A stretch of 64,000 nucleotides of DNA. Source: Candidatus Versatilivorator sp. GTDB lineage: Bacteria > Acidobacteriota > Terriglobia > Versatilivoradales > Versatilivoraceae. Made by a program: the position numbers and the translations under genes. The stretch is taken from NCBI GenBank assembly GCA_965207735.1, contig OZ242296.1, positions 4,128,001 through 4,192,000 of the forward strand. Direction: 5' to 3'. Below the pieces are notes generated by a model. That model worked only from the letters and a program-made list of their open reading frames with translations. It did no database searches and was not told the origin of the DNA. Positions 22,434 to 32,854 of this stretch are shown here, in pieces. The stretch's first letter is position 1, and each line of letters opens with the position of its first letter.

Positions 22434-23204
22434 TCAGTCGGAATCCTCGCCCCTCAGGCGCCTTTTGCCGAAGATCCAGGCTACCAGGATGCCTACCAGG
22501 TACAGCAAGAGCATGGGCGCGGCGAATACCATCAAGGTTGGGATGTCCGGCGTTGGCGTGATGACGGCTGCTGTAATGAAAATTATGAGGACGGCATAGC
22601 GGAGATTCCTCAACAGGAATCGGGCATTGGTGACGCCCATGATGGAGAGGAAGAAGATGACGATCGGAATTTCGAAAATGATGGCGCATCCCAGAATGAC
22701 GACCAGAGCGAAGTCGAAGTAGAAGGTAGCAGTCACGATCTCCTGAAAGTTCTGGCCGAAATTGGTGAGAAAGTTCAAGGTCATGGGAAGGCCGACCGTG
22801 TAGGCAAAGATCCCCCCCAGTGCAAAGAGAAGGCTGGAGGAAAGCAGGAAGGGTATGGCGTATCGCTTTTCCCGGGAATAGAGGCCGGGGGCAATGAACA
22901 ACCAGACCTGCCACAGAACTACCGGAGAGGCCAGAAAGATCCCGGCGTAGAAAGAAGCCTTCATGTAGATCATGAAGGGCTCGGTGGGGCTCAGATAGGT
23001 GAGCTTGCTGTCCCCCAGGTGCTGGGTAATCGGAACCGACAGGAACTCGAAGATTCTCTCGTGAAAGATCCAGCAGGCAACGAAACTGATGCCTACCGCA
23101 GCGATGGCGACGATGATACGCCGGCGCAACTCGTCCAGATGATCCAGAAAGGACATCTTGCCGGACGTCGCAAGCTCGTTGTCGTCCCTTGGGTCAGTGT
23201 CCAT
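22434..23204 (-). CDS. tatC: Twin-arginine translocase subunit TatC
   Basis: MSFLDHLDELRRR, FIAPGLY..EK, FEIP and ITPTPD motifs. Confidence 0.97.
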   Translation of the reverse strand: MDTDPRDDNELATSGKMSFLDHLDELRRRIIVAIAAVGISFVACWIFHERIFEFLSVPITQHLGDSKLTYLSPTEPFMIYMKASFYAGIFLASPVVLWQVWLFIAPGLYSREKRYAIPFLLSSSLLFALGGIFAYTVGLPMTLNFLTNFGQNFQEIVTATFYFDFALVVILGCAIIFEIPIVIFFLSIMGVTNARFLLRNLRYAVLIIFITAAVITPTPDIPTLMVFAAPMLLLYLVGILVAWIFGKRRLRGEDSD

Positions 23205-23649
23205 CCGGCTTGGTTTCAGGCTTGGGCTCCGAGCTCGAGCCGGATGAGGAGGCTATCGCAGCCTCCGGCTCCCGGCCGGCGTCGCCTTCAGAAGGATGGG
23301 AGGGTGCTTCAGGCTTCTCTTCGGCGGAGACAGCTTCCGCCGCAACATCACCGCCTTCCGCTTCGGAAGAGGTCGGTGCCGCCGCTTCCTCCCCGGTATC
23401 GACGGCCGGTGCAGGGTCGGCAGTTGCAGCTTCCGCCGGCTTTTCCAGCTTGGGCGGGGGAGGGGGAGGTTCATATTCCGCCGCGCGAACCTCTTCCTCC
23501 AGGGTATTTCTGAGTTCGTTGGAGGCGCGTCGGAACTCGGAGAGTCCCCGGCCGAGAGATTTCCCCAACTCAGGCAGCTTGCGTGGCCCGAATACCAGCA
23601 ACGCCACCACAAAAATGATGATCAACTCGGGTACGCCGATGGGTCCCAT
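23194..23649 (-). CDS. tatA: Twin-arginine translocase TatA/TatB family subunit with long acidic tail
   Basis: IGVPELIIIFVVALLVFGPRKLPELGKSLG motif, directly upstream of tatC. Its length would also fit TatB. Confidence 0.88.
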   Translation of the reverse strand: MGPIGVPELIIIFVVALLVFGPRKLPELGKSLGRGLSEFRRASNELRNTLEEEVRAAEYEPPPPPPKLEKPAEAATADPAPAVDTGEEAAAPTSSEAEGGDVAAEAVSAEEKPEAPSHPSEGDAGREPEAAIASSSGSSSEPKPETKPDGH

Positions 23650-23670
23650 CCGTTCCTCCAAACGTACCGA

Positions 23671-29588: not shown

Positions 29589-29768
29589 CTGAAACAAACG
29601 AAAAAAGACAAAAGAAAAAGAGGAAAAAGATTTATCCACGAAGAGGCACGAAGGACCACGAAGGGCCACTAAGGCGCTGAGGTTAACCGCGACGGGGTAC
29701 CAAGGTCGCGAAAGGATAATCGATTTCCGATTGTTTCACTCTCGTATGATCCGCCCGGCAGGGCGGGG
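29589..29768. repeat. Dispersed intergenic repeat (about 150-180 bp), copy 1; copy 2 at 49378-49521
   Basis: Shared CTGAAACAAA..A-rich..TTATCCACGAAG..CACTAAGGCG..CGCGACGGG.TACCAAGGTCGCGAA..CGATTTC.GATTGTTTCACTCTCGTATGATCCGCCCG. Confidence 0.9.
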
Positions 29769-29916
29769 ACGGAACTTGTCTCAAACGCCGGGGACTATAC
29801 CACAGACACGGGGCAACCGGGGATCAGAGGCACTAGCCCGCAGTTGTCCATGCCGCCGGTCTATCAAGACAAGCACAGCAGCTGGGCATCCCCGCTCTAC
29901 CGGCAAATTGCGAGCT

Positions 29917-29945
29917 TTGATTTTTCCGGGAGGTTGGGCTATATT
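29917..29945 (+). promoter_or_regulatory. Putative promoter of the MNIO cluster
   Basis: TTGATT-17 nt-TATATT about 95 nt upstream of the precursor ATG. Confidence 0.45.
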
Positions 29946-30040
29946 CTGGCTCTCTCGAAAGTACCAGTTGACCGGCGGGCATGGTTCGCCGGATCGCTAT
30001 GGAGATGATGTTCAAACCCATCCTCAAGGAGGATTCCTCT

Positions 30041-30415
30041 ATGGATCGAAGAAAATTCACTCAGGTCATGGGAGCCGCCGTGGCCGGCATGGTGGCGGGT
30101 TCCAAAGCGGTCAGTCAAACGGATTCGCTGTTGTTGGCCGATGAAGACAAGAAGTCCAAGCACGTCTGCAAGGGCCGTAACCAGTGCAAGGGCCAGGGCG
30201 GTTGCGCCAGCGGCGACAACGGCTGCGCCGGCAAGAATTCCTGCAAGGGCAAGGGCGGCTGCGCCACCGTGGCCAAGCACGCCTGCAAGGGTCAGAACGA
30301 GTGCAAGGGCCAGGGCGGCTGCGGCAGCGGCGACAACGGCTGCGCCGGCAAGAATTCCTGCAAGGGCAAGGGCGGCTGCGCCGTTCCCGTTCACGGGACC
30401 GAAAAGAAGAAATAG
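30041..30415 (+). CDS. Cys-rich repeat RiPP precursor (bufferin BufA2-like) with twin-arginine-like leader
   Basis: RBS AAGGAGG; leader MDRRKFTQVMGAAVAGMVAGS; four CxGxNxCKGxGGC units (12 Cys); directly upstream of DUF692. Confidence 0.85.
   Translation: MDRRKFTQVMGAAVAGMVAGSKAVSQTDSLLLADEDKKSKHVCKGRNQCKGQGGCASGDNGCAGKNSCKGKGGCATVAKHACKGQNECKGQGGCGSGDNGCAGKNSCKGKGGCAVPVHGTEKKK
30158..30382 (+). repeat. 117-bp (39-aa) tandem duplication within the precursor
   Basis: AAGCAC at 30158 and 30275 begin near-identical units. Confidence 0.95.
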
Positions 30416-30534
30416 CCTGACTCTCCAGGACCGGCCGGTCTCCCGACGTTTCCGACCGCGGGGTGCAGCCCACGACTCCGCGGCCGGGAAGCGGGATGGC
30501 GGCCGAGTCCGTGCGTCGGACCAGGAGGTCCCTT

Positions 30535-31395
30535 ATGGGCAGGAACCGATGGAATTTGCCCGACCTGGGGTTCGGAATCGGTCTCCGCACCGTCCACTAC
30601 AGCTACATTCTCGCCAACCACCCTCCCATCGACTGGTTCGAAATCCTGTCGGAGAACTACATGGATACGGGAGGACGGCCGCTTTACGTGCTGGACCAGG
30701 TGGCGGAACGCTACCCGGTCGTGCTCCACGGCGTTTCCATGTCGGTGGGAAGCACCGACCCCTTGAACCTGGATTATCTGAAGAAACTGAAGGCCTTGGC
30801 CGACCGTACCAGGGCCCACTGGGTCTCCGACCACCTCTGCTGGACCGGCGTGAGCGGCATCAACGTCCATGACCTGCTGCCGATGCCCTACACCGACGAA
30901 TCCCTGCGCTACACCATCGAACGGGTGAAGGCGGTTTCCGAGATCCTGGAGCGCCCCCTGGTGCTGGAGAATCCCTCGACCTACCTGGAGTTCGGGACCT
31001 CGACCTGGAGCGAAGTCGACTTTCTGTCCACCCTGGCCCAGGAGGCCGACTGCGGGATACTTCTGGACGTGAACAACGTCTACGTCAGCTGCTTCAACCA
31101 CGGCCTGGACCCGGACGCCTTCATCGACCGCGTCCCGGCCGACCGTGTGGTTCAGTATCACCTGGCCGGACACACCCACAAGGGAACCCACATTCTGGAC
31201 ACCCACAGCGATTACGTCATCGACGAAGTCTGGTCCCTCTATCGACGCTCCTGCCGGAGAACCGGCGGGGTGGCAACCCTGCTGGAGTGGGACGAGAACA
31301 TTCCCAGCTTCGAGGTGGTTCACGCCGAAGCCTTGAAAGCCCGCCGGCACCGCGGCCTTCCCGAGCCGGACCACAAGAGAGCCTATGGCACCTGA
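30535..31395 (+). CDS. DUF692 family multinuclear non-heme iron oxidative enzyme (MNIO; BufB/MbnB/HvfB-like)
   Basis: HGVSMS, SDHLCW, HDLLP, LENP, LLDVNNVYV, HLAGH, DTH and LLEWD motifs; RBS AGGAGG before ATG 30535. Confidence 0.95.
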   Translation: MGRNRWNLPDLGFGIGLRTVHYSYILANHPPIDWFEILSENYMDTGGRPLYVLDQVAERYPVVLHGVSMSVGSTDPLNLDYLKKLKALADRTRAHWVSDHLCWTGVSGINVHDLLPMPYTDESLRYTIERVKAVSEILERPLVLENPSTYLEFGTSTWSEVDFLSTLAQEADCGILLDVNNVYVSCFNHGLDPDAFIDRVPADRVVQYHLAGHTHKGTHILDTHSDYVIDEVWSLYRRSCRRTGGVATLLEWDENIPSFEVVHAEALKARRHRGLPEPDHKRAYGT

Positions 31396-32224
31396 TCTGG
31401 GCGACACCCAGCAATGGATGCAGGCGGTCATTCTGCATCCGGGCTCCGATCGCGAGGCGGTGGCTTCCCCGAAAGCCCGCAAACTAGTGCCGACAAGCCG
31501 GTTTCCACGCCTGATAAGACCATCCCGTACGCTGGATTCCTTCGACCGAATCGGAATCTACCGCGGCATGTACCTGGCCCGCTTGCAGGAAGCCCTGGAG
31601 GCCGACTTTCCCGGGCTGCTGCATTTTCTGGGTCGGAAGCGCTTCTCCGAGCTGGTCGGGGGCTATGTCGACCGCTATCCCTCCCGGAGCTATACCTTGA
31701 ACCGCCTGGGAGATTATCTGCCCGAATACATCCGGAGCATCCCCGGAATAGTGCGGCAGGACTTCCTCTACGAAATGGCTCGCTTCGAGCTGTTGATGAG
31801 CCGACTGTTCGACGCTGAGGAATCACCGGTCCTCACCCCCGATGCCATCGCCGCGGTACCCCCGGAAAGCTGGGAGACAGCCCGTCTCAAACCCATCGCG
31901 GCTCTTTCGGTGGAGGCGCTTCGCTACCCGGTGGGAGCCTATCTGGAGGCGGTGCGCCAGGGCACGACCTGCCCCAGCACGCGGCGCAAAGACCACTGGG
32001 CAGTGGTTTACCGGCGTCAATACGCGCTCCGTTGGCTGGATCTATCCCGTCCCGCCTACAGGCTTCTGCAGGCTCTGGTCGGCGGCGTTCCGCTCGGAGA
32101 CGCATTGAGCAGCGTCTTGAAAGGGAGGCGCCAGCCGGTTGGAGAGGTGCAGCTCTTCTCCTGGTTCCGCGGCTGGGTGACCGAAGGACTGTTTCAGGCG
32201 GTTGAGCTCGAAGATCCGGCGTAG
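31385..32224 (+). CDS. DUF2063 family MNIO partner protein (BufC/HvfC-like, precursor recognition)
   Basis: RIGIYRGMYLARL.EAL..DFP, F..L...Y...YPS.S..L..LG and ARFE motifs; overlaps the DUF692 stop. Confidence 0.9.
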   Translation: MAPDLGDTQQWMQAVILHPGSDREAVASPKARKLVPTSRFPRLIRPSRTLDSFDRIGIYRGMYLARLQEALEADFPGLLHFLGRKRFSELVGGYVDRYPSRSYTLNRLGDYLPEYIRSIPGIVRQDFLYEMARFELLMSRLFDAEESPVLTPDAIAAVPPESWETARLKPIAALSVEALRYPVGAYLEAVRQGTTCPSTRRKDHWAVVYRRQYALRWLDLSRPAYRLLQALVGGVPLGDALSSVLKGRRQPVGEVQLFSWFRGWVTEGLFQAVELEDPA

Positions 32225-32305: not shown

Positions 32306-32515
32306 ATGGCCAGCGCACTCACCAAGAGCCAGATCGACAAGCTGAAGAAGTTGTCGCAGGAATTCGCGGCGATTGCCAAGGAAGGAAAGACGACGCCTGC
32401 CGCCTCCTCAACCCTGGCCGAGCACACCGAACACCACTCCGAAGCGGCCAAGGTCCTTCCCGCCGGACGGCCAAGCAAGGGTGGTCGGTCCAAGGTCAAA
32501 ACAAAGAATTGCTGA
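32306..32515 (+). CDS. Small Lys-rich hypothetical protein or gene fragment
   Basis: MASALTKSQIDKLKKLSQEF... with GC3-rich, gene-like codons but no clear RBS. Confidence 0.35.
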   Translation: MASALTKSQIDKLKKLSQEFAAIAKEGKTTPAASSTLAEHTEHHSEAAKVLPAGRPSKGGRSKVKTKNC

Positions 32516-32589: not shown

Positions 32590-32837
32590 TCTCCGACTCC
32601 CCCTCAAGGGGGGAGTAATAGGAGCGTCGTATGCTGGCCTCGAGTATCACTCCCCCCTTGAGGGGGAGTCGGAGAGACAAGGGCGGAGCCCGCAGTCGAT
32701 CCGGAGGGGGGCCAACGCGGCGTCCCTTTGGAGAAGCCCGCTGTCGATCCGGAGGGGGGCAAGCGCGGCGCCCCTTGAGTGGCTACCAAGAGGGCGCAGC
32801 CCGCTGTCGAGCCGGAGGGGGGCAGACGCGGCGTCCC
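32590..32837. repeat. REP-like hairpin followed by three 40-bp direct repeats
   Basis: TCTCCGACTCCCCCTCAAGGGGGGAGT and ACTCCCCCCTTGAGGGGGAGTCGGAGA are perfect inverted arms. AGCCCGC.GTCGA.CCGGAGGGGGGC...CGCGGCG.CCC units start at 32687, 32735 and 32798. Confidence 0.88.
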
Positions 32838-32854
32838 GTAAGAGAAATCGCGGA

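Follow-up and report, generated by a model that had tools for sequence, protein, structure and literature searches.

Among the described relatives of the locus reported here, we found chemical characterisation for a single Buf2, namely Bufferin 2 of Caulobacter vibrioides (BufA2B2C2, CCNA_02999-03001). Its product shows a mass shift of -18 Da, corresponding to four modified cysteines (-4 Da each) and one disulfide per six cysteines, absorbs near 305 nm, is induced by copper and protects against copper, and its founding operon has no DoxX gene, as described in the text of PMC11626156. As the family name BUF_6/12Cys implies, duplicated members with 12 cysteines exist and make up about 10% of Buf2 (PMC12452194); Buf2 clusters are reported to be without sigma and NrsF genes. 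The texts of PMC11626156 and PMC12452194 assign bufferins Sec or Sec-lipoprotein signals only, and in the published picture bufferins pass through Sec in an unfolded state and acquire their fold around copper as they emerge. More broadly, MNIO-PME1 clusters install 5-thiooxazoles, and in MNIOs of the Cys-Lys group the catalytic Asp is followed by an acidic residue (10.1101/2025.11.18.689057); the chemistry of oxazolin has likewise been reassigned to 5-thiooxazole.

Organization of the bufABC locus

The window, that is, the whole stretch of 64,000 nucleotides of Candidatus Versatilivorator sp. DNA that was analysed, contains three adjacent genes of the same strand in the order bufA-bufB-bufC (Table 1), flanked by an IF-2B-family gene, probably mtnA, on one side and a ferrochelatase gene on the other. 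As the first-pass annotation had stated, no DoxX or sigma gene adjoins them; the single DoxX match of the genome lies about 2 Mb away. NrsF had no match in the genome, DUF2282 had none in the genome or in the bufA precursor, and no Buf1 was found; no Mbn transport genes occur near bufABC. The A-B-C order was shared by nearly all related loci of sufficient length, bufB was present in 13/13 genus genomes, and DoxX was absent among the 47 ORFs picked immediately 3' of bufC in related loci, further loci having given no same-strand ORF under the selection rule used. The tatAC genes 6.4 kb upstream were considered as a functional link and taken as a coincidence, with housekeeping genes in between.

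Table 1. Coordinates of bufABC and associated features in the window
Feature	Position	Strand	Description
sigma70-type promoter-like site	29917..29945	+	TTGATT-N17-TATATT; likely bufABC promoter
Ribosome-binding site	30026..30032	+	AAGGAGG; supports ATG at 30041
bufA	30041..30415	+	124-aa precursor assigned to Buf2 (BUF_6/12Cys), regular-repeat subtype
Leader/signal peptide	30041..30139	+	residues 1 to ~25-33; predicted Tat-type
Cys module 1	30167..30262	+	residues 43-74; two CxGxNxCKGxGGC units, 6 Cys
Cys module 2	30284..30379	+	residues 82-113; two units, 6 Cys
bufB	30535..31395	+	MNIO (DUF692/PF05114) bufferin maturase, 286 aa
bufC	31385..32224	+	DUF2063 (PME type 1) partner, 279 aa; overlaps bufB by 11 nt

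The promoter-like site was found once, against 0.6 +/- 0.7 in shuffles, and is not above chance when taken alone; the exact motif was present 5' of bufA in 12/14 same-genus loci, the present locus included. A comparable AG-rich site also lies ahead of the same bufA ATG in genus loci. In three metatranscriptome runs, bufA and bufB are covered by contigs that come from related strains and are mostly 90-95% alike; such contigs show neither the level of expression nor a single transcript.

The precursor bufA

The 12 cysteines of bufA map to residues 43, 49, 55, 62, 68, 74, 82, 88, 94, 101, 107, and 113 and form four CxGxNxCKGxGGC units in two 6-Cys modules, and TRF gave a period of 117 nt (39 aa; 1.9 copies, 93% matches, 30156-30382), which confirmed the four units on a 39-aa duplication described by the first-pass annotation. 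The two modules differ at 6/99 nt. Some genus assemblies have a 6-Cys form, which may reflect either a true deletion or a collapse of the 117-nt repeat during assembly. The data did not support the idea that the modules were recently duplicated or homogenised by gene conversion; module differences within a genome (4-11/99 nt) were close to those across genomes (7.7-7.9), and module-specific residues were retained throughout the genus.

The precursor scored 63.4 bits against the BufA2 model NF050166 (cut-off, 60; profile positions 6-62 of 79), a value that is the sum over three stretches with a best single stretch of 35.6 bits. The Cys gaps in each module are 6,6,7,6,6, as against 6,6,7,6,13/14 in full-length matches to the BufA2 model, so that the different repeat spacing noted earlier stands. 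In canonical BufA2 the sixth Cys sits on an aromatic strand and helix, both of which are missing from bufA. Since the cut-off was passed only by summed repeats, and the C-terminal strand/helix with its distal Cys is absent, the disulfide pattern and the modification count of bufA may differ from those of canonical members. AlphaFold gave no strands for the bufA precursor (pLDDT, 48.9; pTM, 0.19; core pLDDT, 40-48), a low confidence that is not in itself proof of disorder, whereas two strands and a helix were predicted for a canonical control, at a pLDDT of only 61.6. An ESM Atlas search with bufA returned unnamed clusters only, and one with the small ORF returned nothing.

The predicted maturation enzymes and family assignment

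The assignment of bufB as a DUF692 enzyme was confirmed (PF05114, 359 bits), and its score against the BufB model NF050167 (356.5) exceeded the cut-off of 310, while it stayed under the cut-offs of the HvfB (NF003818; 253, cut-off 360), MbnB (TIGR04159; 55, cut-off 325), ApyH, and ChrH models. Twelve residues (E36, E40, H65, H100, E145, D178, N181, H209, D222, H224, E251, and D253) were conserved in 89/89 BufB sequences and H213 in 88/89, in a set from related loci that counts the bufB of the window itself and almost identical sequences from the same genus. By analogy with MbnB/TglH these residues are probably the iron ligands, a role suggested by how invariant they are and by the alignment with 3BWW and 8HCI; the earlier description of the ligands as intact held. 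D253 is followed by acidic E254, with no Phe after the catalytic Asp, which matches the pattern of the Cys-Lys group. The overlapping DUF2063 partner was likewise verified, with 67.7 bits for bufC against PF09836 (cut-off, 27.2) and a weak match to the HvfC model over residues 54-233 (40.4, cut-off 142). A search of the PDB with bufC gave E values no better than 0.09. The length of bufC is compatible with a two-domain PME1, and family and length together suggest that a C-terminal RRE domain may be present.

Taken together, these data make it almost certain that bufABC belongs to the Buf2 (BUF_6/12Cys) family of bufferins. A four-unit, 12-Cys homologue with an RR leader, MCI0516215.1 (P0026 in our set), is 67% identical to bufA, and the authors' supplement lists it under Buf2 together with its MNIO, MCI0516216.1; our grouping follows this listed homologue. 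At the level of bioinformatic classification, the cluster therefore falls within a published bufferin subfamily that already has this architecture, an outcome that the first-pass annotation had named as refuting its proposal, although we found no chemically characterised member with exactly this repeat arrangement. The proposed relation to BufA2 bufferins stood, with both NF050166 and NF050167 passed and multivalent metal binding likely. The novelty once claimed for the gene content and the 12-Cys form is mostly in print; the layout is ordinary, and the absence of DoxX and sigma genes was rejected as a novelty, both having been published for Buf2. Listed Buf2 members share the bufABC order, the BufB-type MNIO, the DUF2063 partner, the duplicated 6-Cys module, and the lack of sigma/NrsF genes, and MCI0516215.1 shares the same four-unit repeat and RRxF leader as well. 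What we did not find in print are the regular-repeat subtype, which lacks the strand/helix and distal sixth Cys, and, as the chief trait, the conserved RRx(F/L) leader. The texts of PMC11626156 and PMC12452194 do not separate such a subtype, although their supplements may show it, and we found no 12-Cys or regular-repeat Buf2 with chemical characterisation in the literature. An NF050166 search was silent in all 14 control genomes, Caulobacter included, which indicates that the phylum samples used below undercount the family.

Compared with C. vibrioides Bufferin 2, the present locus has the same three genes, no DoxX, Cys-Lys motifs, and an MNIO of the same NCBIfam family. It differs in having two 6-Cys modules instead of one, an RRxF leader instead of a predicted Sec signal, and a sigma70-like promoter instead of SigF control, and in lacking the distal Cys and strand of the predicted BufA1-like sheet/helix fold with its end-to-end disulfide; C. 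vibrioides BufA2 is presumed, from full-length NF050166 matches, to have the 6,6,7,6,13/14 spacing. The captophorins oxazolin (HvfA) and fontiphorin (FonA) are similar in their multi-site Cys-repeat precursors, MNIO and PME1 enzymes, and copper-binding 5-thiooxazoles, and fon, too, is a minimal three-gene cluster, but they carry EGKCG (Lys-Cys) motifs, none of which occurs in bufA, and bufB lacks both an HvfB-level score and the Phe after the catalytic Asp. Buf1 and methanobactin share MNIO-modified cysteines and copper binding with this family. Buf1 differs in its four-Cys DUF2282 precursor with SigF/NrsF and DoxX nearby, and methanobactin in its use of MbnB/MbnC with a short MbnA.

The twin-arginine leader and the export route

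The leader of bufA (MDRRKF...) consists of a D-R-R-K-F-T-Q motif, a Gly/Ala-rich h-region, and Lys22 in the c-region, with candidate cleavage after residue 25 or 33; it thus has the paired arginines of a Tat signal, followed by F at +2 and, at +4, by Q, one of the two residues (K/Q) typical of that position. It had gone unremarked in the first-pass annotation. An RRx(F/L) leader was present in 110/121 closest precursors; of the 111 RR leaders, 109 carried F at position +2, and 83 carried K at position +4. In the phylum samples, RRxF occurred in 7/20 multi-module, 0/10 single-module, and 0/40 canonical precursors; because the other 13 multi-module precursors have no RR, 12 cysteines do not require Tat.

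Tat signals are distinguished by a weak h-region, helix breakers 12-17 residues past RR, and a basic c-region (PMC7317946). Gly16, Gly20, and Ser21 of bufA fall within that interval, and a basic residue followed the h-region in 22/41 RR leaders versus 5/25 non-RR leaders, lipoprotein leaders being set aside. The h-region hydrophobicity (KD) was 1.98 in RR leaders (n = 43) and 2.21 in their non-RR relatives (n = 40); bufA, at 1.87, and the RR leaders in general were still more hydrophobic than the host Tat signals (1.51). With a quick tree, the contrast between RR and hydrophobicity came down to two supported independent pairs and was not significant after phylogeny, and the corresponding test for the basic c-region likewise had two supported pairs, neither test having power. 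Further, a large hydrophobe at +3 was found in 0/111 RR leaders, so that the semi-conserved consensus Tat Leu after F was never present, versus L/M/V in 35/35 host Tat signals, which had been chosen by TIGR01409. The host encodes tatA/tatC at 22434-23661 of the window and has 56 TIGR01409 matches, bufA not being among them with 150/174 candidates scored, and the Pfam TAT_signal model PF10518 matched 1/84 members weakly (E 0.078). TatC was found in 29/33 RR hosts versus 17/17 non-RR hosts, a result that is uninformative (50 of 77 loci; the four misses are MAGs of unstated completeness).

On the conserved RRxF features of the leader, we lean toward export of the bufA peptide by Tat, more probably than by Sec. 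The strongest alternative, which we consider less probable though a serious one, is that the same bufferin takes the Sec route of every described member, in which case RRxF would be an unusual n-region, a signal that either route can use, or a helix on which the RRE domain of BufC docks. The lack of a predicted core fold counts against Tat, the cargo of which is mostly folded proteins (PMC7317946). Against Sec stand the conservation of the RR, F, and K positions across records of Acidobacteriota, Planctomycetota, and Gammaproteobacteria, and the great rarity of paired arginines in E. coli Sec signals (PMC7317946). Docking to the RRE is disfavoured, since close relatives with equally similar BufB/BufC have no RRxF, which implies that the enzymes do not need it, and modification of BufA1 and HvfA proceeds even without the signal peptide. 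The word "Tat" does not occur in the main text of PMC12452194, nor in the other MNIO papers examined; the supplements of PMC11626156 and PMC12452194 may mention Tat predictions.

The predicted product and its function

By homology to C. vibrioides Buf2, the bufA cysteines are very probably converted to 5-thiooxazoles by bufB and bufC; the oxazolone-thioamide product suggested earlier has become less likely, because oxazolin has been reassigned. As to how many are modified, analogy mildly favours 8 of the 12 cysteines, together with two disulfides. An alternative that we regard as unlikely is a fontiphorin/oxazolin-like product in which all 12 are thiooxazoles and which, having no structural disulfide, folds only around metal. 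The four identical 3-Cys units with 6-residue spacing and no distal Cys or strand, the lack of a predicted scaffold in contrast to the canonical control, and the modification of every repeat Cys in FonA and HvfA are consistent with it. On the other hand, half of the bufA cysteines precede Ala/Gly and not Lys, and MNIOs are context-selective; the only characterised Buf2, as described in the text of its report, leaves two of six cysteines unmodified, and DsbA-family matches are present in the host. The calculated monoisotopic masses for cleavage after residue 33 are 8925.05 for the unmodified peptide, 8888.77 for 8 thiooxazoles with 2 disulfides, and 8876.68 for 12 thiooxazoles, and for cleavage after residue 25 they are 9766.51, 9730.23, and 9718.13, so that the two products would differ from the unmodified peptide by -36.3 and -48.4 Da, respectively.

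The metal bound by the modified peptide is, by analogy, probably copper. Copper induction of bufABC is unproven, because the genome has no NrsF match and the promoter is sigma70-like, and this promoter, conserved in the genus, together with the lack of NrsF and Buf1, the occurrence of bufB throughout the genus, and the housekeeping neighbours, would also fit a constitutive metal store, a peptide that binds some other soft metal, or an oxidant sink instead of an inducible copper-stress buffer. The bufferin authors themselves speculate on storage by large bufferins. We nevertheless consider this rather improbable, as the characterised thiooxazole RiPPs examined bind copper, and an unlinked regulator can still make a sigma70 promoter metal-regulated. 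A metallothionein-like precursor active without modification, with the MNIO acting on another substrate, is highly improbable: stand-alone precursors have been reported and some related precursor loci (e.g., L036, L044, and L054) have no adjacent MNIO in the available DNA, but here the only MNIO match of the genome, with its catalytic residues intact, lies directly 3' of bufA in a conserved gene order.

We therefore favour, with good but not full confidence, a Buf2 bufABC operon that would produce an exported periplasmic copper chelator. BufB and bufC would oxidise about eight of the precursor cysteines in the cytoplasm, the modified peptide would then leave the cell interior, and its predicted role in the periplasm is the chelation of several copper ions. 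As Tat is strictly post-translational, the leader would probably serve to keep a long multi-site substrate cytoplasmic until it is modified. A bolder and quite improbable version is that an unnamed, widespread Buf2 branch has given up the disulfide-pinned sheet/helix scaffold in favour of pure CxGxNxCKGxGGC repeats and repeatedly gained or lost the RR leader, and that its fully thiooxazole-modified peptide, folded on Cu(I) while still in the cytoplasm, leaves metal-loaded via Tat, acting as a one-way copper shuttle where the usual picture has a sponge in the periplasm. A more modest form of this idea, in which Tat exports the apo peptide, is one that we find plausible on balance.

As found, bufABC adds one more genome to a family that already counts thousands of members. 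What interest remains lies in its use as a test case for the action of a Cys-Lys MNIO on a scaffold-free repeat, in terms of the cysteines modified and the coppers held. If the RRxF leader is Tat-dependent, the published Sec picture would fail for a large branch in Acidobacteriota, Planctomycetota, and Gammaproteobacteria, and the export paths of MNIO RiPPs would comprise Sec, the lipoprotein route, and Tat.

Organization and Family Placement of the bufABC Cluster

The bufA, bufB, and bufC genes, encoding a precursor, an MNIO (DUF692), and a DUF2063 partner, form a real Buf2 (BUF_6/12Cys) bufferin cluster, which the first-pass annotation described correctly, with gene positions in agreement with ours. 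The precursor contains twelve Cys residues with gaps of 6,6,7,6,6,8,6,6,7,6,6, and TRF detected a repeat with a period of 117 nt (1.9 copies, 93% matches), both in agreement with the reported tandem duplication. The bufB gene is the sole PF05114 match of the whole genome and fell under the cut-offs for the HvfB, ApyH, MbnB, and ChrH models. Thirteen His/Glu/Asp/Asn positions were invariant in 88–89 of the 89 BufB sequences from the loci of this analysis, which supports the claim of intact metal-ligand positions; alignment to 3BWW and 8HCI likewise supports a ligand role for these residues. The cluster is flanked on both sides by housekeeping genes, the single DoxX match in the genome lies ~2 Mb away, and the 100%-complete host genome gave no match to NrsF or DUF2282, confirming that neither a DoxX nor a sigma gene adjoins the cluster. 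All same-genus genomes (13/13) carried bufB, and the nearest named records were a Terriglobia MAG and an Acidobacteria MAG (BufB identity of 94–97%).

Features of the bufABC region (window positions)
Feature	Position	Strand	Description
bufA	30041-30415	+	124 aa; strong RBS at 30026-30032
bufB	30535-31395	+	356.5 against bufferin maturase model NF050167 (cut-off 310)
bufC	31385-32224	+	DUF2063
69-aa ORF	32306-32515	+	81 nt after bufC
tatA/B-tatC pair	22434-23661	-	6.4 kb upstream of bufA
Interspersed genome repeats	29690-29775 and 32590-32846		REP/MITE-like; flank bufABC
Inverted repeat	32590-32675		31 bp, 97%

The flanking repeats had ~216, 62, and 122 genome matches of at least 40 nt. The 69-aa ORF, possibly a genus-specific fourth gene, was found by tblastn in 14/14 same-genus loci (62–86% identity to the window copy) and was absent from all more distant loci examined. 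A His/Glu motif resembling EHTEHHSEAAK is conserved among its copies. It matched nothing in Pfam, NCBIfam, or Atlas, and its substitutions by codon position (67/71/98) gave no more than a weak sign of selection.

The 12-Cys duplication and the lack of sigma and DoxX genes had been put forward as novel, but all are already on record for Buf2. According to PMC12452194, 90% of Buf2 precursors carry 6 Cys and the remainder carry 12 in duplicated domains, and sigma/NrsF genes are present in Buf1 clusters and absent from Buf2 clusters; PMC11626156 describes the founding buf2 operon as being without a DoxX gene. Our precursor search yielded 6957 relatives among 7997 scored candidates, and exactly four CxGxNxCKGxGGC units with 12 Cys occurred in 62 of the 121 precursors examined (the best 120 of the 6957 plus the query). 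Among these relatives, MCI0516215.1 (P0026) has an RRxF leader and four units as in the window precursor, with 67% identity over 122 residues. As the most direct evidence on family placement, this accession and its MNIO both stand in the Buf2 columns of the PMC12452194 supplement. By sequence, four-unit precursors are therefore frequent and already have a place in the published classification.

Two Cysteine Patterns among Buf2 Precursors

The Buf2 precursors in our samples fell into two Cys patterns. Canonical precursors, that is, full-length matches to the BufA2 model NF050166 (14 from Acidobacteriota and 26 from Pseudomonadota, two being 12-Cys duplicates), have gaps of 6,6,7,6,13/14 and an aromatic strand plus a helix bearing the sixth Cys. 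The window precursor instead repeats the three-Cys unit, covers just positions 6–62 of the 79-position model, and exceeds its cut-off by summed repeats. AlphaFold gave two strands and a helix for a canonical control (core blocks 63–82) and no strands for the window precursor (core 40–48), a low confidence that is not proof of disorder. The different repeat spacing noted earlier thus holds, as the mark of a widespread subtype (30/44 precursors in the Acidobacteriota sample) and not of this locus. We infer that C. vibrioides BufA2 is of the canonical type; the window precursor would differ from this characterised member in scaffold and leader.

Versions with 6 Cys and an unchanged leader were found in L012 and in 2/13 genus genomes, each a fragmented assembly (L090, L094, and L012 vs L085-L098), and all nine genomes of 1–3 contigs, including that of the window, had 12 Cys. 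Short-read unitigs end at the 117-nt repeat, one with doubled depth, so part of the 6-Cys records may stem from collapse of the repeat during assembly. Two precursor genes occurred at eight related loci (L021, L029, L042, L022, L033, L057, L062, and L073); in the first three, a 12-Cys precursor of the regular-repeat subtype lies near a 7-Cys precursor of canonical type.

Leader Type and Export Route

The window precursor begins with MDRRKFTQ, and RRx[FL] was present in 110/121 precursors of the same set, which is biased as the best 120 of 6957 relatives plus the query. The RR leaders had F at +2 in 109/111 and K at +4 in 83/111. Across 83 genome loci, counted after 15 from the same genus had been taken out (two rows mis-scored, L084 being RR and L045 having a wrong start; p-values ignoring kinship), the h-region was weaker in RR than in non-RR leaders (KD 1.98 vs 2.21), and a basic residue followed it in 22/41 RR vs 5/25 non-RR non-lipoprotein leaders; these traits are listed as Tat hallmarks in PMC7317946. 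In the phylum samples (L154 unparsed, L151 leader incomplete, L178-L181 excluded as below cut-off), RRxF was found in 7/20 multi-module, 0/10 single-module, and 0/40 canonical precursors. In a quick tree built from 73 BufB rows, RR, Sec-like, and lipoprotein leaders were intermixed; the RR group requires 8 changes, of which starred branches force at least 3, and pooling the RR-lipoproteins lowers the requirement to 6. The host genome encodes tatA/tatC; ctpA-like, gatB, GcvT-like, thioesterase, and IF-2B-family genes lie between the tatA/B-tatC pair and bufA.

Export by Sec, among the strongest rivals, is a real if lesser prospect. No RR occurred in 13/20 multi-module precursors, and the RR h-region (1.98) was still stronger than that of host Tat signals (1.51). 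The +3 residue was T/N/S/A/G/P in 111/111 RR leaders and Leu in none, vs L/M/V in 35/35 host Tat signals, a set biased by TIGR01409 selection. The bufA product was absent from the 56 TIGR01409 matches in the host, and Pfam TAT_signal matched just 1/84 members, weakly. TatC presence was non-discriminating (29/33 RR vs 17/17 non-RR hosts), and covariation of RR with leader traits gave just 2 supported independent pairs. Tat cargo is described as mostly folded proteins (PMC7317946), and the core without a predicted fold in AlphaFold is at odds with this. Weighing these data, we lean slightly towards the window precursor leaving by the Tat route; the boldest reading, in which the repeat peptide crosses by Tat already carrying copper, is improbable.

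Four related loci (L028, L033, L062, and L131) combine RRxF with a lipobox-like Cys, as predicted Tat lipoproteins, and non-RR Planctomycetota relatives have mostly lipoprotein-type leaders. A Thermoanaerobaculia-like clade (L025, L029, L034, L040-L042, L046, L047, L050, and L051) carries KKGDL/KKRDL where the RRxF motif would align, followed by a stronger h-region; its leaders suggest a switch between the Tat and Sec routes, in either direction.

The main texts of PMC12452194 and 10.1101/2025.11.18.689057 contain neither "Tat" nor "twin-arginine", and "Tat" is likewise missing from PMC8692599 and the other MNIO/thiooxazole papers searched. The two entries naming both bufferins and Tat concern an outer-membrane copper channel; the search found no bufferin-Tat link, although unread supplements and subscription papers may bear on it.

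Proposed Maturation and Function

The mechanism proposed here is drawn from two sources. For C. vibrioides Buf2, PMC11626156 reports Cu induction, a protective effect, and a shift of −18 Da, made up of −4.03 Da at each of four Cys and one disulfide; 5-thiooxazoles are moreover the general product of MNIO-PME1 pairs (10.1101/2025.11.18.689057). By analogy, BufBC would act in the cytoplasm and oxidise approximately four Cys in each module, with D253 of BufB as the predicted base; E254 matches the acidic position of Cys-Lys-group MNIOs and is acidic in 58/89 relatives. Modification of all twelve Cys, also among the strongest rivals, is rather unlikely. Post-translational export would leave the eight-site substrate time for completion; the leader would then carry the peptide out, and signal peptidase is predicted to remove it at residue 25 or 33. 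The ligands for several Cu ions would be thiol and ring N atoms; Buf1 holds a single Cu with two rings. Least probable of the strongest rivals, and itself unlikely, is a constitutive or non-copper role, suggested by a sigma70-like site kept in 12/14 genus loci and by the missing NrsF match in the host genome.

For C. vibrioides Buf2, PMC11626156 names the unmodified pair "CysI (Cys24) and CysVI (Cys50)". The canonical gaps sum to 38, so residue 24 is CysIII if CysVI is residue 50, suggesting either a numbering slip or a free pair of III/VI. Whether the pair is III/VI or I/VI bears on which Cys residues would be predicted free in the window precursor.
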